Below are positions 1,095 through 10,870 of a stretch of DNA of 11,386 bases, piece by piece. The notes under the pieces were generated by a model that saw only the letters and a program-made list of their open reading frames with translations, was not told the origin of the DNA and did no database searches. Numbering within the stretch: the stretch's first letter is position 1; each line of letters starts with the position of its first letter. Position numbers and translations under genes: made by a program. Origin of the DNA: a phage; sequence record PZ049719.1; one strand, given 5' to 3'.

Positions 1095-1225
1095 ACGCAA
1101 CACTGCCGGGCAGTGCCCCCTTCATGTCGATCGCGTTTCTCCAGCCGCGCTAAACCGGCCAGATAGCTGATGGGTAAACGGCGGTGACTTTATATAAGGG
1201 CGGATATCGACCGGGTGACCACAAC

Positions 1226-1241
1226 ATTACGAATTTGTAAT
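1226..1241. promoter_or_regulatory. Palindromic box ATTACGAATTTGTAAT (ATTAC-N6-GTAAT) in the czcC/porin divergent intergenic region; candidate response-regulator operator
   Basis: Read directly from the sequence; half-sites are reverse complements. It lies 132 bp upstream of the czcC-like start and 159 bp upstream of the porin ATG. The GTAAT half-site resembles boxes reported for CopR/CusR-type OmpR-family regulators, but that comparison is from memory. Confidence 0.4.
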
Positions 1242-1272
1242 CCACGGAATACTTGCGGTTGCGTCGCTACAG

Positions 1273-1288
1273 ATTACGAGATCGTCAT
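1273..1288. promoter_or_regulatory. Second related box ATTACGAGATCGTCAT (ATTAC-N6-GTCAT) upstream of the porin gene
   Basis: Same half-site spacing as the 1226..1241 box, with one mismatch in the right arm; 112 bp upstream of the porin ATG. Confidence 0.3.
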
Positions 1289-1399
1289 TTGCCGCTAATC
1301 CTGCGGTCATTTGTAGGGGGAGATCATGGCCAGGCGCTAAAACAAAAAGGCAAGAGACGTCATTCGAACGCTGACATGCCGTATATCAGGAGCATCATC

Positions 1400-2722
1400 A
1401 TGAGCAAAAAGGCCGCCCTTTCACTGACAGCTCTTTCATTGGCACTGGGCGGCGCCTCGGTCTTTGCCCAGTCGGAAACAGCAGCGGAGGGCTTCATCGA
1501 AGGCAGCACGCTATCGCTGATCAATCGCAACTTTTATTTCAATCGAGATTTCCGCGACGGTGAGAACGCAACCGGCAATGGCTACTCTGAGGAATGGGCT
1601 CAAGGGCTGATGGCCTTCTTCGAGTCCGGATATACCCAAGGCTCGGTGGGGATCGGCGTCGACGCCTTCGCCATGCTCGGCCTCAAGCTCGATTCTGGAT
1701 CAGGACGTTCCGGTGCTGGCGGAACCGTCGATCTTCTCCCCTACAATAGCGCCGGCGATGCCGAGGATGACTTTTCTCGAGTAGGGGGGGCCGTGAAAGC
1801 ACGGTTCTTGGGCACCGAGATCAAGGCAGGCGATGTATTTCCCGCTACTCCTGTCGTGCACTTTGGTGACGCACGGCTGCTGCCGGAGTCTTTCAAGGGT
1901 GTCACCGTTGTGAACAACTCGCTGGACGACCTCACCCTCCAGGGCGGCCGCCTGCACGCGATGAGCCAGCCCAATACCAGCAACACGAACGATGACTTCG
2001 TCACGTTTTATGGCGGCGGCGTCGACTCGCCTTGGCTCGGCTACGCAGGCGGCGACTATAGCGTGAACGAAAACCTCAGTCTTAGCCTGTATACCAGCCG
2101 GCTGAAGGATGCCTGGGATCAACATTATTTCGGTGTCTCGGCCACCTATCCACTTTCCGATGCCGTCGTGCTGCTGGGCAGCTTCAACTACTACAAGGCA
2201 ACCGACGAAGGTCGGAAATTGCTGGGCGAGTTTAACAACAGCATCTGGAGTTCCAGTCTGGGTGTCGCCTTCGGCGCGCACACCGTCACGGCGTCGTATC
2301 AGCGAAACAACGGTAACAACGACTTTGACTACTTGCGCCAAGCGGACTCGATCTACCTGAATAACTCCATCCAGTACAGTGATTTCAACTCACCTAAAGA
2401 GCAGTCCTGGATGCTGCGTTATGACCTGAACATGGCGGGTTACGGCATACCTGGGCTTACGTTCATGACTCGCTACGCCCGCGGCTGGGGCGCCGATTAC
2501 AGCAACGCAAATGAGGTATATATGCGCCAAGACGATAACGGCGCGCCTCTGTCCGGACAGAAGCGCTGGGAACGCGACGTCGAAGCACGCTACGTTGTAC
2601 AGACAGGCTCGTTCAAGGACCTCTCTCTGCGGGTGCGCCAGGCTACAACACGGGCGACTGCTTTCGAGTCCGACCTCAATGAGGTTCGATTCATCGCCGA
2701 GTACCCGCTCTCGATCCTGTGA
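1400..2722 (+). CDS. OprD-family (Occ) outer membrane porin
   Basis: The ORF track extends to a TTG at 1253, but the likely start is the ATG at 1400, preceded by AGGAG at 1388..1392. Product begins MSKKAALSLTALSLALGGASVFA (signal peptide) then EGFIEGSTLSLINRNFYFNRDFRDG..., the characteristic N-terminal signature of OprD/Occ porins. Length about 440 aa fits the family. Confidence 0.85.
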   Translation: MSKKAALSLTALSLALGGASVFAQSETAAEGFIEGSTLSLINRNFYFNRDFRDGENATGNGYSEEWAQGLMAFFESGYTQGSVGIGVDAFAMLGLKLDSGSGRSGAGGTVDLLPYNSAGDAEDDFSRVGGAVKARFLGTEIKAGDVFPATPVVHFGDARLLPESFKGVTVVNNSLDDLTLQGGRLHAMSQPNTSNTNDDFVTFYGGGVDSPWLGYAGGDYSVNENLSLSLYTSRLKDAWDQHYFGVSATYPLSDAVVLLGSFNYYKATDEGRKLLGEFNNSIWSSSLGVAFGAHTVTASYQRNNGNNDFDYLRQADSIYLNNSIQYSDFNSPKEQSWMLRYDLNMAGYGIPGLTFMTRYARGWGADYSNANEVYMRQDDNGAPLSGQKRWERDVEARYVVQTGSFKDLSLRVRQATTRATAFESDLNEVRFIAEYPLSIL

Positions 2723-2781
2723 AGCACTACGAGCAACACCACATCTTCTTTTTGTGCTCCCTTGGTTTGAAGATGTGTTTC

Positions 2782-2807
2782 AGGCGCCCGTAGGGCGCCT
2801 TTTTTTG
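2782..2807 (+). terminator. Rho-independent terminator downstream of the porin gene
   Basis: AGGCGCCC-GTAG-GGGCGCCT forms a perfect 8-bp GC-rich stem with a 4-nt loop, immediately followed by a run of seven T, about 60 bp after the porin stop. Confidence 0.75.
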
Positions 2808-2853
2808 CTTAAGTGCACCTCCTTGCGCTGCGGGCCAACCAAATGACAGGTAG

Positions 2854-2869
2854 ATTACAAATTTGCAAG
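2854..2869. promoter_or_regulatory. Related box ATTACAAATTTGCAAG upstream of the response-regulator gene; candidate autoregulatory operator
   Basis: Left half-site ATTAC and the AAATTTG core match the 1226 box; the right half-site is degenerate (GCAAG versus GTAAT). Sits between the porin terminator and the regulator start. Confidence 0.3.
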
Positions 2870-3038
2870 ACAGCCCCGCAGGACTTTTACCGCGTTAAAG
2901 TGCTTCCCGCTTCCCTAGGCTGATCTTTACGGCCAGCCTTCCATGCTGGGCAAGCCGCGTTAGTCTTGGCCTAGTTGCTACATGAATAATTTTTTGGTTC
3001 CGCTTACCGCGCACCTCATTGCTGAGTCATCTGAAAAC

Positions 3039-3713
3039 ATGCGCATTCTGGTTGTAGAAGACGAGATTAAAGCTGCGGAATACCTGCAGCAGGGTCTCAT
3101 CGAGTGTGGTTACACGGTCGATTGCGTAAGTGATGGGCTCGATGGATTCCACCTGGCACTGCAGAACGACTATGACATCGTGCTGCTAGACGTGAATCTG
3201 CCAACCATGGACGGGTGGGAGGTGCTCGAACTCATCAGGCGACGTAAGCAGACACGCGTCATCATGCTGACGGCCAATGGCCGCTTAGAGCAAAAGGTCC
3301 GCGGCCTGGAGTCGGGCGCCGACGACTATATGGTCAAGCCGTTCCAGTTCCCCGAGCTGCTCGCTCGTATCCGAACATTGTTGCGGCGAGGCGAGGCGGT
3401 CGCACTCCCGAGCAACCTGCGTGTAGCCGACCTCGAACTCGACCCGGGCCGGCATCGGGCCTACAGGAGCGGTCAGCGTATTGATCTCACCAGCAAAGAA
3501 TTTGCGTTACTGCATCTGCTCATGCGCCGGACTGGCGAGGTTCTGACGCGCACCGAAATAACCGCCCTGGTGTGGGACATCAACTTCGACTGCGATACCA
3601 ATGTGGTGGATGTTGCAATCCGTCGCCTACGGATGAAGGTGGACGAACCCTTTGGCGATCGCCTGATACACACCATTCGCGGTGTCGGCTACGTGCTGGA
3701 GGCGCGGCCTTGA
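3039..3713 (+). CDS. czcR: OmpR/PhoB-family two-component response regulator, heavy-metal type (CzcR/CopR/CusR-like)
   Basis: Translation MRILVVEDEIKAAEYLQQGLIECGYTVDCVSDGLDGFHLALQNDYDIVLLDVNLPTMDGWEVLELIRRRK... contains the receiver domain with the phospho-acceptor Asp in LLDVNLP, followed by a winged-helix output domain (...IRGVGYVLEARP). The ORF track begins at ATG 2982; I prefer ATG 3039 because this family typically starts MRILVVEDE, though neither start has a strong Shine-Dalgarno. The czcR symbol is by context (czcC-like OMF, porin, overlapping kinase). Confidence 0.8.
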   Translation: MRILVVEDEIKAAEYLQQGLIECGYTVDCVSDGLDGFHLALQNDYDIVLLDVNLPTMDGWEVLELIRRRKQTRVIMLTANGRLEQKVRGLESGADDYMVKPFQFPELLARIRTLLRRGEAVALPSNLRVADLELDPGRHRAYRSGQRIDLTSKEFALLHLLMRRTGEVLTRTEITALVWDINFDCDTNVVDVAIRRLRMKVDEPFGDRLIHTIRGVGYVLEARP

Positions 3714-5083
3714 AGCCACTCAGCCTCGCATCGCGTCTCGCGCTTCAAATCACATTGACCGGCGCCGTCTTGGTCGCGCTGTTGATTGCACTGAGCTACT
3801 GGGTACTTGTGCGCCAACTGGAACTGCGCGCCCAGGAGGAAGTGACGGCCAAGCTCTCGCAGATCGATCATGGACTCCTAGAAGACACCAAAGCCCGTAT
3901 GGGCCGCTCCTGGCAACACGCACTGAGCGATACGGTACTCGGCCATGACAACCTTTCGATTACCGTCATCGGCGATAGAGCCAAATCCCCCATTTTTAGT
4001 ATCGGCCGGTTCGCCCATGCGCCGCAGCAGATGGATCTTGTGAACAGAGACGGTGAATACCTAGGCTGGACCACGGAAGACGGCGTGCAGATGCTAACCG
4101 GGCGCAAGCAAATACAGGTCCCGGGACTGGCTCCAATGACGCTTTTACTTACGCAAGATCGCAGTGCCGATCAACTGCTAGTGGCTGCATTCCTGCGCTC
4201 GGCCTTAGTGACTGTGCCGATGCTGCTGATGTTGATCGGGTTGGCTGGATGGCTAGTTGCTAACAACGGTTTGCGACCGCTTCGCAAGTTTCGGGCCTTG
4301 GCGACAAAGGTATCGACGCAGGATCTGTCACCCCGAATCCGCAGCGATCAGCTTCCACTAGAGCTTCAGGAATTGGCGCACAGCCTCAACGTAATGCTTC
4401 ATCGACTCGATGACGGAGTTCAGCAACTGTCACAATTCTCGGACGATGTGGCCCATGAGTTGAAGACTCCCCTAAATAACCTGATAGGCAAGGCGCAGGT
4501 GACATTGGTGCGTGAGCGAAGCAAGGAGCAATATAGGGAAGTGCTCGAATCGTCGGTCGAAGAGCTCGAACGCATGGATCGAATCGTGTCAGACATGCTG
4601 TTTCTCGCCCAGGCCAGCCACGCCAGCCCAGCACTGAAACTCGAACAACTATCCCTGGGAAGTGAGGCGAATCGCGTCTGTGAATACCTCGAAGTCCTCG
4701 CCGAAGAAGCCGGAGTCGCAACGACGGTAACGGGCGATGCCATAGTTCTAGGAAATCGGCTTATGGTCCAACGGGCCATTTCCAACCTGCTATCCAACGC
4801 GTTGCGGCATTCGAATACTGGCAGCACGGTCGAAATTAAGATACTTGAGAAGGACATAGACATCGTCTCGCTGGCTGTCACCAATCATGGCGCGACTATC
4901 GAATCGGATCATCTCCCGCACCTGTTCGACCGCTTTTACCGCGTTAACGGCATACAACCTCGTGGGGCAGGATTGGGGCTAGCTATTGTCCGTTCAGTGA
5001 TGAACCTCCACAAAGGCCACGTGGCCGTCGCCAGCAAAGACGGTCGGACCACATTCGAACTCACCTTTCCTCGGCACGCCTGA
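3710..5083 (+). CDS. czcS: Heavy-metal sensor histidine kinase (CzcS/CusS/CopS-like)
   Basis: Two predicted transmembrane segments flank a periplasmic region. H-box FSDDVAHELKTPLNNL with the His codon at 4454..4456; N-box LLSNALRHS; DRFYRV; G-box GAGLGLAIVRSVMNLHKGHV. The only plausible start is TTG 3710..3712, overlapping the regulator stop (TGA 3711..3713) and preceded by GGAGG at 3698..3702; the first in-frame ATG lies far downstream and would delete the first transmembrane segment. Confidence 0.8.
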   Translation: MKPLSLASRLALQITLTGAVLVALLIALSYWVLVRQLELRAQEEVTAKLSQIDHGLLEDTKARMGRSWQHALSDTVLGHDNLSITVIGDRAKSPIFSIGRFAHAPQQMDLVNRDGEYLGWTTEDGVQMLTGRKQIQVPGLAPMTLLLTQDRSADQLLVAAFLRSALVTVPMLLMLIGLAGWLVANNGLRPLRKFRALATKVSTQDLSPRIRSDQLPLELQELAHSLNVMLHRLDDGVQQLSQFSDDVAHELKTPLNNLIGKAQVTLVRERSKEQYREVLESSVEELERMDRIVSDMLFLAQASHASPALKLEQLSLGSEANRVCEYLEVLAEEAGVATTVTGDAIVLGNRLMVQRAISNLLSNALRHSNTGSTVEIKILEKDIDIVSLAVTNHGATIESDHLPHLFDRFYRVNGIQPRGAGLGLAIVRSVMNLHKGHVAVASKDGRTTFELTFPRHA

Positions 5084-5231
5084 TTCAAAGTGATACGGCT
5101 TGGTACCCACTCCCCATCAGACCAACGCCATACATTAATCTCATAATGCATGCATGGCCTAATCGAGCGTGGGATGGTCTACAAAAACGATGAGTTTAAA
5201 ACAGAGCCGAATCGGCAGAAAGCGATGGTTA

Positions 5232-5247
5232 ATTACTGCTTTGTAAT
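5232..5247. promoter_or_regulatory. Box ATTACTGCTTTGTAAT (perfect ATTAC-N6-GTAAT half-sites) upstream of the small secreted-protein gene
   Basis: Same architecture as the 1226..1241 box; 71 bp upstream of the ATG at 5318. A 6-bp-stem hairpin (5266..5281, TAAGGG-TCAA-CCCTTA) lies between the box and the start codon. Confidence 0.4.
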
Positions 5248-5317
5248 GCGAAGAACATCTTCTGGTAAGGGTCAACCCTTTAATCTAAAGGTATCTACTA
5301 ACCCAAGAGGGTAACAA

Positions 5318-5635
5318 ATGAACCGCCCTGCTAAAGTAATCCTGCCGTTCTTTCTGGCCGCTGCTTCTTCGCTCGCTATGGCTGAAGACGGAGGGGAACT
5401 AACAATGCAGCGCCTTGAGAGTGCGTCAGTAACAAATCCCACCCTTAAAATACTTGTTAAAGAAGGTAAAGTGCTGAGCATAGCACCTGCAGGGACGACC
5501 GGTACGACCGGAATGATTCAGAGTTATAGAACTAACGGCAAAGTTCAAACGTACGAGATGAAGGTTAAGACCCCTGATGGGAAGATCCATACGGTTGAGT
5601 TTTTGAGCGCCCCGGTTGGTATAAACAACGGCTAA
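5318..5635 (+). CDS. Small secreted/periplasmic protein of unknown function (105 aa, signal peptide plus beta-rich mature domain)
   Basis: ATG 5318 preceded by AGAGGG. N-terminus MNRPAKVILPFFLAAASSLAMA is a typical Sec signal peptide with an A-x-A cleavage site. The mature part (...GKVQTYEMKVKTPDGKIHTVEFLSAPVG) is Thr/Gly/Lys-rich, looks beta-stranded and has no Cys/His metal motif. It sits in a visibly A+T-rich segment between the kinase and the MerR gene. Family not recognised; PepSY-like or DUF2790-like are only guesses. Confidence 0.6.
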   Translation: MNRPAKVILPFFLAAASSLAMAEDGGELTMQRLESASVTNPTLKILVKEGKVLSIAPAGTTGTTGMIQSYRTNGKVQTYEMKVKTPDGKIHTVEFLSAPVGINNG

Positions 5636-6064
5636 CAGGCCAGTAAGCCCCAACGCCATTAATTTAATGCACGCGTCCTCGCTAATGCCAGCGAGAATTC
5701 CACAAGCCTCAACTTCCCGCCCATCACTGCAATTAGCCCGCAGTGATACGAGTTGTCGTTCGAGTGACTGCAGAGCGGTTATCTGCGACTTGACTTGAGA
5801 AATGTGTTCATCGAGCAAGGCATTAACGGCCGTACAAGGCTGGCGAGGGTCATCCTGGTAGCGTTGGAGTGCGTGAATCTCTGGAAGTGACAGATTCAGG
5901 ATTCGGCAGCTCCGGATGAAGGCTAGCCGCTCGCCATGCTTCTCGGTGTAGACACGATAGCCGTTCGCCTGGCGATCAGGCGGTGGCAGCAAGCCCTGCT
6001 GCTCATAGAAGCGGATCGTCTGTGTATCAATCCCTATTAGCCTTGCTAATTGACCAATGCGCAT
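5426..6064 (-). CDS. MerR-family metal-responsive transcriptional regulator (CadR/ZntR/PbrR-like) with an aberrant 3' extension
   Basis: N-terminus MRIGQLARLIGIDTQTIRFYEQQGLLPPPDRQANGYRVYT is the MerR helix-turn-helix; a dimerisation helix follows, with Cys at residues 77, 112 and 121 in the pattern of the CadR/PbrR/ZntR metal site. The ORF has no stop until 5426, giving 212 aa against roughly 135-150 aa typical of this group. The last 65-80 codons lie antisense to the small-protein gene and look non-native (...FTFFNKYFKGGICY). The coordinates are those of the open frame; the true functional 3' end is uncertain. Confidence 0.7.
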   Translation of the reverse strand: MRIGQLARLIGIDTQTIRFYEQQGLLPPPDRQANGYRVYTEKHGERLAFIRSCRILNLSLPEIHALQRYQDDPRQPCTAVNALLDEHISQVKSQITALQSLERQLVSLRANCSDGREVEACGILAGISEDACIKLMALGLTGLLAVVYTNRGAQKLNRMDLPIRGLNLHLVRLNFAVSSITLNHSGRTGRPCRCYAQHFTFFNKYFKGGICY

Positions 6065-6092
6065 CGTGTGAATCCTTATCGGCTCTGCATTA

Positions 6093-6123
6093 TTGACCTT
6101 GTAGTAGCTATAGGGCTTTTAAT
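6093..6123 (+). promoter_or_regulatory. MerR-type promoter/operator: -35 TTGACC, 19-bp spacer with imperfect dyad, -10 TTTAAT
   Basis: TTGACC (6093..6098), then the 19-bp spacer TTGTAGTAGCTATAGGGCT, then TTTAAT (6118..6123). An overlong 19-20 bp spacer carrying a dyad is the hallmark of MerR-family activated promoters, and the arms ACCTTGTAG / CTATAGGGC resemble CadR/PbrR-type operators as I recall them. It lies in the divergent region between the MerR gene (start 6064) and the transporter gene (start 6157). Confidence 0.7.
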
Positions 6124-6156
6124 GACCCCATCTTCGATTTCAAGTGGAGCCGTATC

Positions 6157-7047
6157 ATGAGCAAGTCCGATGGTCCCTGCGGCTGCGATGCGACACCAGC
6201 CGCCGATGCCGGTGTGCAAAATCATTCCGATACGACGGGGCAATGGGTCAGTGTTTACGCCGTGCCCAAGATGGATTGTCCATCAGAAGAGCGAATGATC
6301 CGCTTGGCGCTGAATAGTTTGGACGGAATTCGGAAACTGACTTTTGATTTATCGGACCGTCGATTAGACGTCATGCATGACGGGGCCGTTGAGCCCATAA
6401 CTACAAAGCTGGCGGCGTTAGGGCTAGGCGCCACACTTCAGAAAACCGTCACTGCAGACCCGGAGATGATTAAAGCCGTCGAGAATTCGGCGGAATCTAC
6501 ACAGGAGTCCCGTTCCCTACGTTTACTGTTAGGCATCAACGCCTTCATGTTCGTGGTAGAGATGACTGCTGGTCTGGTCGCCAGGTCCGCGGGTCTGATT
6601 GCCGACTCGCTCGACATGTTCGCTGACGCGGCAGTGTACGGCCTAGCCCTTTATGCGGTGGGGCGTAGCGTCAGCCTGCAGGTGCGTGCTGCACACCTTG
6701 CTGGTGTGCTCCAGCTGATTTTGGCTCTCGGCGTGCTCGTAGAGGTATTTAGACGCTTTGTATTCGGCAGCGAGCCCGAGTCGCTGATAATGATGGCCGT
6801 CGCATTCCTGGCATTGCTCGCCAACATGGGTTGTTTGCTGCTGATTTCCAAACACAGGGAAGGCGGGGCCCACATGAAAGCGAGCTGGATATTTTCCGCC
6901 AATGATGTGGTCATCAACGTGGGCGTCATAGTCGCCGGAGCGCTCGTCGCTTGGAGTGGATCCAACTACCCAGACCTGATTATCGGTACTGTTGTGGGAT
7001 TCATCGTTCTCAACGGCGCTCGGCGTATTCTGGCGCTCAAGAGCTGA
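6157..7047 (+). CDS. CDF-like cation efflux membrane protein with N-terminal metal-binding domain; likely target of the adjacent MerR-family regulator
   Basis: ATG 6157 with GGAG 7 nt upstream. The N-terminal ~100 aa are soluble and carry a CGC motif (DGPCGCDATP) and an HMA-like loop VPKMDCPSEERMIRL. Six hydrophobic segments follow, including a CDF-like acidic motif in TM2 (IADSLDMFADAAVYG). The protein ends right after TM6, so it lacks the usual cytoplasmic C-terminal CDF domain. Confidence 0.75.
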   Translation: MSKSDGPCGCDATPAADAGVQNHSDTTGQWVSVYAVPKMDCPSEERMIRLALNSLDGIRKLTFDLSDRRLDVMHDGAVEPITTKLAALGLGATLQKTVTADPEMIKAVENSAESTQESRSLRLLLGINAFMFVVEMTAGLVARSAGLIADSLDMFADAAVYGLALYAVGRSVSLQVRAAHLAGVLQLILALGVLVEVFRRFVFGSEPESLIMMAVAFLALLANMGCLLLISKHREGGAHMKASWIFSANDVVINVGVIVAGALVAWSGSNYPDLIIGTVVGFIVLNGARRILALKS

Positions 7048-7133
7048 AGGAGCTCCCGTTACAGAAAAAGGGTGTCGTCATGCCTGTAAGCCATCCGGGT
7101 CTAGCGGCGACAGCTAGAACTGGCGACGCAGCT

Positions 7134-7766
7134 TTAGCCATTAACGGATGGTGGGTATTGCAGAACGTGGGCTGCAAAGTCCATCAGCGAGACGAAGCCG
7201 CACTGATCGGCTTTTCCTTCACGCTGTAGGTGGTAGCCACGCATGCCTTGCCCAATTGGACCAAGCATATCGGCTTGCAACGTGTCACCGATCATTGCGA
7301 TGGCGGAGGCTTCGCAGCCAAGCTGTTCGATCATCTGACGATAGATTGCAGGCTCAGGCTTTATTGCCCCAACCTCAAAGCTCCATCCGTAAACATCGAA
7401 CGACGGCAGTAACAGTTTGGCTGGAATCGCATATGGGGCTGCGAGATTGGAGCACAACGCGAGCTTCAGGCCGGCGTTCTTTAGCTGATTTAGCGACTCC
7501 AACGCATCATCGAAAAGGCGAACGCTGGCCAGCTCGGTGAAAAGGTCGCTTTCAAGGCTAGCTAACTCAGAGTTGCTCAACTGCGCACCGAAATAATCGG
7601 CAGCTCCAGCCAAACCCAGATTTCGAGTCATCAGAGTCCGTGCGTCATCCGGCCTTGGTGTTCTGCCCTGAAGCCGCAGGTGCTGCATCAGTTGGCGGAA
7701 AGGATGGCGACGCTCATCTATCTGGAGAAGCGTGCCAAACACATCGAAAACTACTGCTTGTATCAT
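7134..7766 (-). CDS. HAD-superfamily hydrolase, haloacid dehalogenase-like subfamily
   Basis: N-terminus MIQAVVFDVFGTLL carries HAD motif I with the nucleophilic Asp but Phe in place of the second Asp, the pattern seen in L-2-haloacid dehalogenase-type members rather than phosphatases. Later motifs (LALCSN, MIGDTLQADM) fit the fold. It lies 55 bp downstream of the SRAP gene on the same strand. Confidence 0.7.
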   Translation of the reverse strand: MIQAVVFDVFGTLLQIDERRHPFRQLMQHLRLQGRTPRPDDARTLMTRNLGLAGAADYFGAQLSNSELASLESDLFTELASVRLFDDALESLNQLKNAGLKLALCSNLAAPYAIPAKLLLPSFDVYGWSFEVGAIKPEPAIYRQMIEQLGCEASAIAMIGDTLQADMLGPIGQGMRGYHLQREGKADQCGFVSLMDFAAHVLQYPPSVNG

Positions 7767-7821
7767 GCCAGTACCACTACCGTTGGAGGCGAACCGACCA
7801 CCCGAAGAGCGATGCCGCCCC

Positions 7822-8478
7822 TCAGTTTTCTGAACTGGATTTCTTCAGAGGTGGCACGAAGAAGATGCGTCTTTGCGGGGGCGCTATCAGGATATCTGTC
7901 GACTTGATGCTTGTGCCTTTTCGACGCCTTGTTTTGCCGTTCTTGTCGACCGCCAGCAGATCACCGGTCGCGACAGCAATGTCGAGTGCCTGCTTTACGC
8001 GAAGCTCGTCAGCCATGGTGTAGTTGGTCAATCCGCTCATCAGACCCAAAAAAGGTTGCCGTTCTACCTCCCATAGGCCCGCTATCCCTAGCAGCCGCCC
8101 ATCGGCACGGGAAATTCGAGTAGGAATAGCCTTGCCTGTTCGCCAGTCGGGCTCATAGATCGCCACCGCAGGGATGATGCAGTGCTGTGCCTTCTTCCAT
8201 GCCTCCCTGAATGACCGCTTGACCGAGGCCGTCTCAGAACGGGCGTTGTAGGTGGACCGTGCCAGCTTTTTGTCGGCCCAGAAGGGCAGGAGCCCAAACA
8301 CTCCCACCTCAGCTTCAAATGGCAACACGGCGTCATCGTACGGGTCGACATTGCGAGGCTTGCGCAGGAACGGCCCGGCATAACCTGGCCACAATTCGAG
8401 CTTCTCCTGAGCGTCGAACTCGACACCAAACTCTTCTTGGAGACGCTCTGGGGTAGGGGCTTCGTAACGACTGCACAT
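7822..8478 (-). CDS. SOS response-associated peptidase (SRAP / YedK / DUF159 family; abasic-site processing protein)
   Basis: Start reassigned to the minus-strand ATG at 8478 (ORF track: 8526) so that the protein begins MCSRYE, placing the family's catalytic Cys at position 2. A GAGAGGTG Shine-Dalgarno lies just upstream. Further family-like motifs are YNARSETA and SFREAWKKAQHCIIPA. Confidence 0.75.
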   Translation of the reverse strand: MCSRYEAPTPERLQEEFGVEFDAQEKLELWPGYAGPFLRKPRNVDPYDDAVLPFEAEVGVFGLLPFWADKKLARSTYNARSETASVKRSFREAWKKAQHCIIPAVAIYEPDWRTGKAIPTRISRADGRLLGIAGLWEVERQPFLGLMSGLTNYTMADELRVKQALDIAVATGDLLAVDKNGKTRRRKGTSIKSTDILIAPPQRRIFFVPPLKKSSSEN

Positions 8479-8628
8479 AACACACCTCTCATTCGTCACT
8501 GTGCTGCTCGGTGTTGCGGCCCGCAACGCCTTGGCGAGTGGGATCTATGATTAGGACAATCTCTCGCGGCACCCCGCTTACTGAGTACATCCTTATACTG
8601 AACGCCTGCCTCCGACGATGGTGAATGC

Positions 8629-9585
8629 ATGTCGATAGATCAGCCCCTCCCTTTCTGGCGCAGAGCAGGAACATTTCTATGGGACTCAGTGCGTGAGGAC
8701 TGTGGGTATCCTGCAACGCTCATGAAGCTGATTAAGAGCCCAGTCAAACTTAATTCGCCCATCCAGGAAACAGCAAAAGGTATTGGCGCAGGAGCGGTTG
8801 TTAGGTGGCACGACTTCGGATCTCTTATTTATGAGCGCGGGATATATCGCGACAAGCTGAATGGATGGACCCACTGCCGCACCTATGGTCGGTATGGCTC
8901 GACTAGCATCGAATGCGCCCCACTATTGCGCGTTGGCAGCGAGATGCAGATCCAACGGTGGCGGTGCGATATCCAACAGGTAGATGGCTTCTCCGCGTCG
9001 AAATCCGAACTCAAGGAGTTCGCCACCATGGATGACATGGTGGTAAGGAACTCACCCGAGATGATCGACGAGATATCTCCGGCGAAGCTGGCGAAGAATC
9101 TGGCCTGGGATGAAATTCGGATCATCAGCCACGTCGATCACGATTATTTCGCCACTTGGGCTTGGGACGGACGCGTCTTTCTGATGAACTCCGGCGGTTC
9201 GCATCACTTCGCAGCTGCCAAGTACATCGCGGCGCGGCTTGAACAGCCGGTTGAGCTGACCGGAACCTATAAGATCTACGGGTTATGTGAGCAGGCTATA
9301 ACAGAACTCAGGCGTGAATACGGCATGTTCGTGTTGTCGCATGAGCCTGATGCTTGGTTGGGGTTCAACGAAGCTATGGCTCGCTTCAAGGCAACGTATT
9401 ATTGGAAGACATTGCCCCGCCCGCACAACCACCAGCGTTGCGCAATTTTTTTACCGCTAAAGGAGAAGCGCTCTGCCATGGTTGCGAGGATTCTCAAGGA
9501 AAACAATTTCCAGGACCTAGGCGCTTACTTGGCTGGCCTAGCTGCCCAGTCACAAGCGGTCATCAACAAAGTCAATCCGCCATAA
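8629..9585 (+). CDS. Hypothetical protein, 318 aa, no family assignable by inspection
   Basis: Long open frame with non-repetitive composition, divergent from the SRAP gene and convergent with the relaxase-like ORF. Contains a His/Asp-rich stretch (IISHVDHDYFATWAWDGRVFLMNSGGSHHF) that could be a metal or catalytic site. The start is uncertain: ATG 8629 has a weak GGTGA upstream, and an alternative ATG lies at 8722. Located in the more A+T-rich islet. Confidence 0.55.
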   Translation: MSIDQPLPFWRRAGTFLWDSVREDCGYPATLMKLIKSPVKLNSPIQETAKGIGAGAVVRWHDFGSLIYERGIYRDKLNGWTHCRTYGRYGSTSIECAPLLRVGSEMQIQRWRCDIQQVDGFSASKSELKEFATMDDMVVRNSPEMIDEISPAKLAKNLAWDEIRIISHVDHDYFATWAWDGRVFLMNSGGSHHFAAAKYIAARLEQPVELTGTYKIYGLCEQAITELRREYGMFVLSHEPDAWLGFNEAMARFKATYYWKTLPRPHNHQRCAIFLPLKEKRSAMVARILKENNFQDLGAYLAGLAAQSQAVINKVNPP

Positions 9586-9625
9586 TTAGGGTAGTCCAGA
9601 CCTCAGCGCAACTATCCAATGATAG

Positions 9626-10870
9626 CTAGTGATCATCCTGACTCTCACAAAGTTTGAGATTGGGATTATCCAGCATCTCAGTTGTGAATACGTCGCCGGG
9701 TTTTTTGAGCATATAACCCTTCAGTGTTTTCGTTTTACGAGGTCCAAAGACTTCGCACGTCCAGATGTTATGTCCGTTGCTCTTCTTAACGTGAAGCTTC
9801 AGCTTTTCGAACGACTTTTGGACCTGCAGCCATGGCTGTCCTTCGCCAGCCCTCGCTGAGAAGAGGGTCGGATGCTCTTGGGCATACCTTCTGAATATTT
9901 CAGGAGTCACCAGAAAAGCCGTGCCGTTGACGGTGTGAACCTTGGCTTTTGCATCATTGATAATGATCTTGTGGGTTCCTACACCCACTTTTAGCCAGTG
10001 CATGAAAAGGTGACCTAGCGTGTCGCCGATCGGGCCAGCGATGGTAGCGGTCGCGGCAGTGTCTGACTGAGCTTCGACCTCGGACGCCGCCGGCATCGCC
10101 GGGGCGGGTACCGAATTGGTCGGCGCGTCACGCATATCCATCAGATCCAGAAGGTAGTCCGTATCATCTACCTCATCGGGTTGCGGTCCATGGTCACTTG
10201 CGGGTTCGTCCCCTTGAGGCTCTGCCGCAACGGCATCGCCGCCCCCGGCAGTAAGGCTGGGCTTTTCCTCCTGCGCTTCGGAAGCTGCGGCAGGGGCTGC
10301 TTCTTCGTTGAGGACTTGCACCGAGCCGCCAAAAGGCTCCGGGCGGTCTTCGCCAGCTGCCCATATGAGTGAAGGTGAAACTCTCAAGAACGTGAATGCG
10401 TTCTTCCATCCCGTAGGGCTCAGGATTTCGGCATCCCAAATAGCTTTGCCAGCAGGATTCGCAACAATCAGGCCGTTATCCTGAAAGACATTGAAGAGAG
10501 TGGAGTTGCGGTCCGGAACACCCTCAATCCCTTGGCTGAGGAGGTGAGCACGCAGCCGATCCGAAACGGTCTTGCTGACCAGCCAGATCGCATCGGCCGT
10601 GATCCAGCCATCGGAAGCGTCTGGCTGATTCAACTTGAGCTCGTTCTTCACCAGGTAGCGCAGCCCATCGAGGAGCTGACGCTGAAGAGTGTTACGCGGT
10701 GCTGCCACAGCTCTGTCTGGATTGCCGCCAAGCTCATGGGCGACCGACGCCTGGTCAGACCTTACAACGATGTCCCCAAGAACCCCAGCGTGCTCAAACT
10801 GGCCAGCCAGTACGTACAGCAAAGCACCCCAGAGCTCTGGATTGGATGAGATCCATCCGATACCATTCAA
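9626..10870 (-). CDS. Hypothetical protein with a long acidic Ala/Pro-rich linker; possibly a 5'-truncated remnant of an ICE-type relaxase (TraI_2_C-like C-terminal region)
   Basis: The frame opens with TTG directly after an in-frame stop at 10871..10873, and the first internal ATG is about 245 codons in, so an intact N-terminus is doubtful. The upstream sequence in the same frame translates to non-protein-like text. A low-complexity segment (about 10000..10300) separates an N-terminal region from a basic C-terminal domain (...WTCEVFGPRKTKTLKGYMLKKPGDVF...). The resemblance to conjugative relaxase C-termini is a recollection, not a search result. Confidence 0.4.
   Translation of the reverse strand: MNGIGWISSNPELWGALLYVLAGQFEHAGVLGDIVVRSDQASVAHELGGNPDRAVAAPRNTLQRQLLDGLRYLVKNELKLNQPDASDGWITADAIWLVSKTVSDRLRAHLLSQGIEGVPDRNSTLFNVFQDNGLIVANPAGKAIWDAEILSPTGWKNAFTFLRVSPSLIWAAGEDRPEPFGGSVQVLNEEAAPAAASEAQEEKPSLTAGGGDAVAAEPQGDEPASDHGPQPDEVDDTDYLLDLMDMRDAPTNSVPAPAMPAASEVEAQSDTAATATIAGPIGDTLGHLFMHWLKVGVGTHKIIINDAKAKVHTVNGTAFLVTPEIFRRYAQEHPTLFSARAGEGQPWLQVQKSFEKLKLHVKKSNGHNIWTCEVFGPRKTKTLKGYMLKKPGDVFTTEMLDNPNLKLCESQDDH

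Follow-up and report, generated by a model that had tools for sequence, protein, structure and literature searches.

Probable stop loss behind a 212-residue CadR-type regulator that reads antisense into a PtrA-like gene

The window analyzed here is a stretch of 11,386 nt from the phage sequence record PZ049719.1. It contains cadR, a gene for a MerR-family metal-responsive regulator, and a convergent gene for a small PtrA-like protein, into which the open reading frame (ORF) of cadR continues on the opposite strand. A sequence-only reading of the window had attributed this arrangement to an insertion or recombination event that replaced the native C-terminal tail of the regulator. Our analysis points to a different history: very probably a point mutation abolished the stop codon of cadR, and the residues appended in this way are a passenger. 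This degree of confidence refers to the genetic cause and does not extend to the functional outcome. The features on which the argument rests are the following.

5426..6064, minus strand: cadR ORF, 212 amino acids (aa), from the ORF list
5663..6064, minus strand: cadR core, codons 1-134, a complete native CadR/PbrR-type MerR regulator (Pfam, NCBIfam, alignment to a Protein Data Bank (PDB) entry, 134-aa orthologues)
5660..5662, minus strand: former stop codon, now Leu135 (TTA), from DNA alignments with relatives that have TGA
5426..5659, minus strand: read-through extension, codons 136-212 (5429-5659) and a new TGA stop (5426-5428), from the ORF list and protein search
5318..5635, plus strand: gene for a PtrA-like small secreted protein of 105 aa, convergent with cadR (NCBIfam NF041599; homologue clusters)
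5636..5659, no strand: spacer of 24 nt that separates the PtrA-like stop codon from the former stop of cadR and is read today as cadR codons 136-143 (sequence; homologous in L081, L085 and L006/L007)

A complete CadR core and an added tail

The core comprises a winged helix-turn-helix, a dimerization helix, the metal-site residues Cys77, Cys112 and Cys121, and the native tail ...EDACIK. Residues 1-108 match MerR_1, MerR and MerR-DNA-bind in Pfam (PF13411, PF00376, PF09278). The NCBIfam equivalog model for CadR-PbrR, TIGR02047, scores 192.8 bits against a curated cut-off of 151.45, with residues 1-127 aligned to positions 1-127 of its 127, that is, over the whole model. CadR of Pseudomonas putida (PDB 6jgv) aligns with residues 1-131, and its C77, C112 and C119 stand opposite C77, C112 and C121, which are invariant or nearly so among 54 homologues. 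Pfam, TIGR02047 and the 6jgv alignment thus agree that the core with its three metal-site cysteines is intact, as the sequence-only reading had held. In the AlphaFold2 (AF2) model the core helices span residues 3-10, 14-22, 41-55, 60-71 and 77-111 with a predicted local distance difference test score (pLDDT) above 82; by stretch, pLDDT is 82-95 for residues 1-110, 54-68 for residues 111-150 and below 50 from residue 150. The ratio of nonsynonymous to synonymous substitution rates (dN/dS) of the core against locus L007 is 0.09, similar to that of other pairs. On the basis of its sequence, the 212-aa protein is predicted to be a cadmium/lead/zinc-sensing CadR/PbrR-type MerR regulator.

Similarity to the family had been thought to end near residue 130. 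It runs to residue 134, so that the native C-terminus is complete: the tail ...GILAGISEDACIK is intact through its last residue, K134, and is followed by LMALGL... in the window. Relatives of 134 aa are 88-96% identical and end exactly at ...EDACIK, and the 90% cluster of the query itself mixes 212-aa and 134-aa forms, the latter 96% identical and ending ...GILAGISEDACIK. A native 3' end that was lost or replaced is therefore not what we find; only the stop codon differs.

The ORF is nevertheless as unusual in length as had been noted. A search of 5.8 billion proteins gave 1086 homologues; among the matches listed, those outside the query's own cluster cover at most ~68% of the query and mostly have 133-136 aa. 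Across 80 species-representative loci the ORF measures 135 aa in 50, 134 aa in 25, 132 aa in one and 212 aa in four. While members of this group usually end shortly after the metal-binding loop (~130-150 aa), and 76 of the 80 loci do so at 132-135 aa, the 212-aa protein does not. This deviation is a secondary mutation of a family member and no reason to exclude it from the CadR/PbrR subfamily.

The extension consists of 78 codons, namely Leu135 at 5660-5662 and codons 136-212 at 5429-5659, followed by the stop at 5426-5428. As first described, it reads antisense into the convergent small gene, and it does so codon on codon against codons 37-105 of the PtrA-like gene, giving a two-strand coding overlap of 210 nt. 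The encoded tail is hydrophobic at its beginning, LMALGLTGLLAVVY, where the Kyte-Doolittle value reaches a maximum of 2.13, and it is basic, with an isoelectric point (pI) of 10.4, three Cys and three His. The impression that it is non-native proved right: no family matches residues 135-212, the Pfam and NCBIfam matches stop by residue 132, and among the matches listed from the 5.8 billion proteins, none outside the 212-aa cluster extends over the tail.

A genuine antisense coding overlap would be expected to show purifying selection and a conserved frame, and the extension has neither. Over the overlap, dN/dS against L081, L085 and L090 is 1.09, 1.61 and 2.10 in the extension frame and 0.27, 0.16 and 0.06 in the PtrA frame. 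The sole substitution in the overlap among the 212-aa copies, at 5524 in L002, is synonymous in the PtrA-like frame and replaces Thr by Ala in the extension. In the register of the extension, antisense stops arise only from sense TTA, CTA and TCA codons. With just two such codons among the 105 of the PtrA-like gene, an open antisense run of 78 codons is unremarkable, and among ptrA homologues the in-frame antisense stops sit at differing positions. We infer that the extension is passenger sequence, a tail that is basic, for the most part disordered and hydrophobic at its beginning.

In other genera, tblastn matches reaching residues 180-196 (L029, L039 and others) had hinted at a wider pairing of ptrA and cadR, but they turned out to be spurious alignment extensions. 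These loci have no PtrA-like gene and encode a normal 135-aa CadR (the 140-aa ORFs start from an upstream TTG), and blastn found no DNA similarity beyond cadR in them. Sporadic C-terminal extensions with unrelated tails do occur in other CadR lineages, of the 135-aa ...EGSMHQQ type (P0018 with 158 aa, P0047 with 179 aa, P0075 with 174 aa and P0119 with 158 aa). Stop loss or frameshift at the 3' end of cadR therefore recurs in the databases, be it as alleles or as assembly errors.

The stop codon, the junction and the spread of the allele

The base that differs lies at position 5661 of the plus strand, where the window has A and its relatives have C, that is, G to T on the coding strand. On the cadR strand 24 close relatives (L005-L028) read GCA TGC ATT AAA TGA ATG/ACG GCG TTG GGG, while the window and L001-L004 read GCG TGC ATT AAA TTA ATG GCG TTG GGG. 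A protein ending in EDAC[IV]K is encoded at 24 loci, and each of them has TGA. Since DNA homology with the relatives persists for ~30 nt beyond codon 135, this codon is not a breakpoint.

The 3' end of ptrA, the spacer and the 3' end of cadR are homologous in two diverged lineages, one comprising L081-L084 and L096-L098 (~88%), the other L085-L089 and L101-L102 (~80%). In both, cadR is truncated further upstream by insertion sequence (IS) elements, yet TGA is kept at the stop position (L081/L096 and L085/L101). Because these two lineages share the junction together with TGA, the juxtaposition of ptrA and cadR predates the stop loss and is not its cause. A scan of metagenome contigs for the junction pattern, with the critical base left free, recovered 13 loci, eight with TTA and five with TGA. 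In all eight TTA loci cadR is full-length and of the allele found here: as far as its sequence was recovered, seven match the window exactly, and L105 shows one substitution in the core. These alignments show TGA to be the ancestral state, also at the junction with the PtrA-like gene, and TTA to be a point mutation derived in one lineage.

The event would have proceeded as follows. A single G-to-T change on the coding strand would turn the TGA stop at codon 135 into TTA (Leu). Translation is then predicted to cross the 24-nt spacer and to follow the PtrA-like gene in exact antisense register from codon 105 back to codon 37, ending at the first antisense stop, opposite the TCA codon 37 of that gene. 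As an outcome, 78 residues would be appended to a complete protein of 134 aa.

Every cadR copy found beside the PtrA-like gene is altered: the lineage of the window has lost the stop, and an IS cuts the gene short near codon 80 in the L081 type and near codon 120 in the L085 type. Beyond its IS, the L085 type has another MerR gene that is intact (135 aa), together with lspA, DUF3703 and a gene of the cation diffusion facilitator (CDF) family. The position of cadR beside the PtrA-like gene may be dispensable or an insertion hotspot.

A consensus scan of 5560-5700 found no terminator between the convergent genes. One terminator-like motif on the minus strand, at 5488-5469, lies inside the extension and is at chance level (two found, 1.1 expected). 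Folds were not better than those of shuffled sequences, with z of -1.3 and -0.5 for the two strands of 5590-5700 and -0.08 for 5440-5520. Scan and folds therefore provide no argument either way on a non-stop transcript.

In Pseudomonas aeruginosa, PtrA (PA2808) is a small copper-induced periplasmic protein of the CopRS regulon. The protein encoded here resembles it in its N-terminal domain, its signal-peptide-like N-terminus and the presence of a CopRS-type system and an OprD-family porin nearby. NF041599, the model of the PtrA N-terminal domain, gives 47.1 bits (cut-off 31) over residues 1-43, which places the protein in the family. It differs in that only these N-terminal 43 of its 105 residues match the model, and its gene follows a kinase gene, unlike the P. 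aeruginosa arrangement. Its homologues form 37 clusters, nearly all of 104-105 aa. The genes of the two closest ones examined (P0137 and P0140, at the nine loci L081-L089) lie downstream of a module of an OprD-family porin, a response regulator and a histidine kinase. As in the window, the PtrA-like gene there follows the regulator-kinase pair, an association with a copper-type two-component system. The more distant P0165 belongs to a cusA/cusF/cusS-type locus (L090-L093). The preceding spacer (5084-5317) has 43% G+C and the PtrA-like gene 49%, with 0.49 at third codon positions (GC3), compared to 56% and a GC3 of 0.62-0.63 for the flanking kinase and CDF genes. The lower G+C of spacer and gene is consistent with a different origin of the segment.

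There was indeed a rearrangement in this region, as two further features indicate.

5100..5628, no strand: segment of 529 bp with nearly all of the PtrA-like gene, against 74 bp in the closest cadR relatives (L006-L026), from blastn against the loci
5122..5153, minus strand: decayed relic of a second cadR 3' end, with a 7-nt insertion at 5137-5143 (repeat families D2, D4 and D6)

The comparison with cassette-less relatives that had been suggested bears this out: by blastn, 1180-5099 and 5629-8070 of the window are collinear with L007 and similar loci, and only the interval between them differs, 529 bp versus 74 bp. The boundary of this indel at ~5628/5629 is 31 nt downstream of the former stop. 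The relic lies between the kinase and PtrA-like genes; together with the real cadR 3' end (5650-5674) it makes up a pair of direct repeats that flank the PtrA-like segment. At the corresponding position L081 (2591-2665) and L085 (2552-2617) have longer relics of ~75-90 nt, with alignment scores of 62 and 41 where shuffled sequences reach at most 28 and 24, respectively; the copy in the window is collinear with that of L081. In L004 and L094 the relic is the 25-mer CCAACGCCATACATTTAATGCATGC, identical to the cadR end of L006 at 24 of 25 positions. It is also a small indel hotspot, as L001 and L002 have a 13-nt tandem duplication (TAATGCATGCATG twice), while L004 and L094 have neither the duplication nor the 7-nt insertion. 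From the direct repeats flanking the PtrA-like segment it follows that the region was once rearranged. The cassette-less L006 type could represent the state before insertion or a deletion between the repeats. In either case the rearrangement is separate from the stop loss and older.

Assemblies from NCBI, JGI, ENA and Logan contain the identical protein of 212 aa on 841 contigs, among them contigs of Stutzerimonas stutzeri A1501 (ABP81045.1) and S. frequens. Four species-representative genomes carry it, and it was seen in S. frequens, S. nitrititolerans, S. stutzeri and metagenomes. Over the segment with the histidine kinase, ptrA, cadR, CDF and HAD genes, four genomes differ from the window by at most 0.3%. 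Orthologues with the same long C-terminus had been named as grounds for abandoning the recombination idea. The same protein is indeed present in several Stutzerimonas, yet all copies represent one young allele (at most 0.3% different) and not a conserved long C-terminus. The part with the OprD and response-regulator genes is mosaic (1434-3713 compared with L001-L004), with a divergence of 1.6-10% in the OprD gene and up to 7.5% in the regulator gene, so that recombination breakpoints lie inside or beside these two genes. The allele is real and young, and it is shared within a recently exchanged or inherited segment; it is a widespread but ordinary mutant allele rather than the scar of a recombination. 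A plasmid collection gave one distant match, 77.6% identical over cadR-CDF, on an S. zhaodongensis plasmid. A literature search found no published work on the 212-aa allele or on CadR in S. stutzeri.

The presumed target, the neighborhood and known systems

Upstream of cadR lies a divergent gene whose product would be the efflux system under its control. It is followed by further genes at the far end of the window.

6093..6123, plus strand: predicted MerR-type promoter/operator of the divergent CDF gene (sequence inspection; palindrome also found as a stem-loop)
6157..7047, plus strand: CDF-family metal efflux gene with an N-terminal HMA domain, presumed target of CadR (Pfam Cation_efflux, HMA)
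2982..5083, plus strand: CopRS/CusRS-type two-component system, response regulator 2982..3713 and histidine kinase ~3710..5083 (Pfam)
7822-8526, minus strand: SRAP (SOS-response-associated peptidase) gene
8629-9585, plus strand: DUF6685 gene
9626-10870, minus strand: TraI_2-type relaxase/helicase ORF with only profile positions 184-324 and the C-terminal domain

The promoter is read as TTGACC (6093-6098), a spacer of 19 nt and TTTAAT (6118-6123), with the palindrome CCTTGTAG-TAG-CTATAGGG at 6097-6115. By sequence inspection, this is the divergent efflux gene with a palindromic operator in a 19-20 bp spacer that is expected of the group. A promoter spacing of 19 nt is a hallmark of the MerR family, as discussed in PMC10393844 and PMC1526738. 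The divergent cadR-CDF pair also occurs in L029, L039 and L085-L089. The DNA-binding and metal-binding core, the predicted operator and the presumed CDF target gene are all intact.

Compared with the CadR/PbrR regulators (TIGR02047; 6jgv; the 134-aa P0122, AGA85209.1 of strain RCH2), residues 1-134 correspond to a full-length member, with 96% identity to the 134-aa form. They share the divergent metal efflux gene behind a predicted MerR-type promoter with a 19-nt spacer. They differ in length, 132-135 aa against 212 aa with a 78-aa read-through tail, and in the presumed regulated gene, here a CDF transporter in place of the CadA P-type ATPase. A natural C-terminal tail with a function is known from P. 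putida CadR, in which a flexible, His-rich tail with His140 and His145 (site II) provides extra cadmium selectivity (PMC6789929). Site II, the mark of the 'ultraspecific' P. putida type of CadR, is absent here as it is in the 134-aa relatives: the alignment with 6jgv ends at residue 131, and the native ...EDACIK has no His. The read-through tail has three His but bears no resemblance to the tail of P. putida CadR.

Another parallel is offered by stop-loss alleles, in which substitution of the stop extends an ORF to the next in-frame stop and thereby recruits unselected downstream sequence, a general phenomenon (PMC4494051). The same extension by a single substitution is seen here. In this case, however, what is recruited is not non-coding 3' untranslated sequence; most of it comes from the opposite strand of a convergent gene that is functional.

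The two-component system was assigned from Pfam matches to Response_reg/Trans_reg_C and to HAMP/HisKA/HATPase_c, the latter with a weak match to CusS. The start of the response regulator is ambiguous: the longest ORF has 243 aa from the ATG at 2982, homologous loci were called with 224, 239 or 243 aa, and the receiver domain begins at residue 22 of the long form. The module of OprD-family porin, CopR/CusR-like regulator, CopS/CusS-like kinase and PtrA-like protein (1253-5635) is conserved in L081-L089. A preprint of 2026 reports that P. aeruginosa PtrA controls OprD-dependent carbapenem permeability (bioRxiv 10.64898/2026.08.14.744805), for which the physical linkage of oprD and the ptrA-like gene seen here may be relevant. 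At the other end of the window, the TraI_2 ORF appears to be N-terminally truncated. Since the window includes this truncated relaxase gene, it belongs to a genomic-island context, and 7822-10870 are remnants of a genomic island or an integrative and conjugative element.

Cause, consequence and meaning of the stop loss

Could the cassette with the small gene have been set against cadR by insertion or recombination, replacing the native tail and stop? The segment shortly beyond the 3' end of cadR, 529 bp long against 74 bp in L006-L026, and the decayed second cadR 3' end at 5122-5153, a trace of past rearrangement, speak for such an event. As the cause of the extension it is nonetheless very improbable. 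The native tail is intact to K134 and a single base differs at the stop, the nearest junction (~5628/5629) is 31 nt past the former stop, and two diverged lineages have the same junction of small gene, spacer and cadR with TGA. Even less credit can be given to an error of sequencing or assembly, with a stop at 5660-5662 in the true genome. A single-base difference is the kind of change that errors make, and the sequence-only reading had considered that resequencing might reveal a stop near 5640..5680. The identical protein on 841 contigs, in four species-representative genomes and on eight independent metagenome contigs leaves hardly any room for it; many independent assemblies exclude it. Some points do weigh against a stop loss with a passenger tail. 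A full-length cadR with TGA and an adjacent ptrA was found neither in the 80 genome loci nor in the metagenome pattern scan, and we infer the immediate ancestor from the two IS-truncated lineages and the cassette-less relatives. With a divergence of at most 0.3%, the allele is too young to show selection on the core since the stop loss; the divergence behind the core dN/dS of 0.09 mostly predates the mutation. Low AF2 confidence in the tail would be expected anyway where the alignment has no coverage.

What the tail does to the regulator is a separate matter. Because the core and the operator before the CDF gene are intact, we consider retained function most likely: with odds somewhat better than even, the extended CadR may still repress and activate the CDF gene in response to metal, although the protein could be less stable or respond differently. 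A long appendage could disturb the domain arrangement of this naturally tail-less type of CadR. It is quite conceivable, if less probable, that the same stop loss cripples CadR and leaves the CDF gene mis-regulated, either through misfolding, aggregation and proteolysis driven by the tail, or through a transcript that ends before the new stop and leads to ribosome stalling and tagging by transfer-messenger RNA (tmRNA). The hydrophobic start LMALGLTGLLAVVY, the pI of 10.4 and the three extra Cys fit such an outcome, as does the alteration of all cadR copies found next to ptrA, which would suit a dispensable gene copy; there is also the weak terminator-like motif at 5488-5469 within the extension. 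Set against this, MerR-family proteins are routinely purified with C-terminal tags and are still active, the motif is at chance level (fold z -0.08), and no second disabling mutation was found in the 12 copies examined, although the allele is young. An adaptive gain seems unlikely. Under this idea the allele would be a selected neomorph whose basic, Cys- and His-bearing tail alters metal response, selectivity, stability or localization, or whose antisense overlap couples the expression of cadR and ptrA. The allele is widespread in Stutzerimonas, a flexible C-terminal tail tunes the metal response in P. putida CadR (PMC6789929), and the tail adds three Cys and three His. However, its spread is explained by one recently shared segment that is at most 0.3% different, the tail has no homologue or family and low AF2 confidence, the extension frame has a dN/dS of 1.1-2.1, and the antisense stops are not conserved among ptrA homologues. 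If true, the coupling form would let convergent interference link two circuits, CadR-CDF for Cd/Zn/Pb and CopRS-PtrA-OprD for copper, and either form would help explain how the allele spread through Stutzerimonas.

For a point stop-loss with a passenger tail, annotation is where most of the practical value lies. What many Stutzerimonas genomes, the model strain A1501 among them, record as a "Cd(II)/Pb(II)-responsive transcriptional regulator" of 212 aa is a 134-aa CadR plus a read-through tail. Residues 135-212 should not be treated as a domain, and the apparent overlap of cadR with its PtrA-like neighbor is a side effect. No long-standing question hinges on the outcome. Still, the TTA and TGA forms, 96% identical, are a natural allele pair on the tolerance of a MerR-type sensor for a long C-terminal appendage. 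They could show whether differences in metal resistance among Stutzerimonas strains stem from the stop loss.

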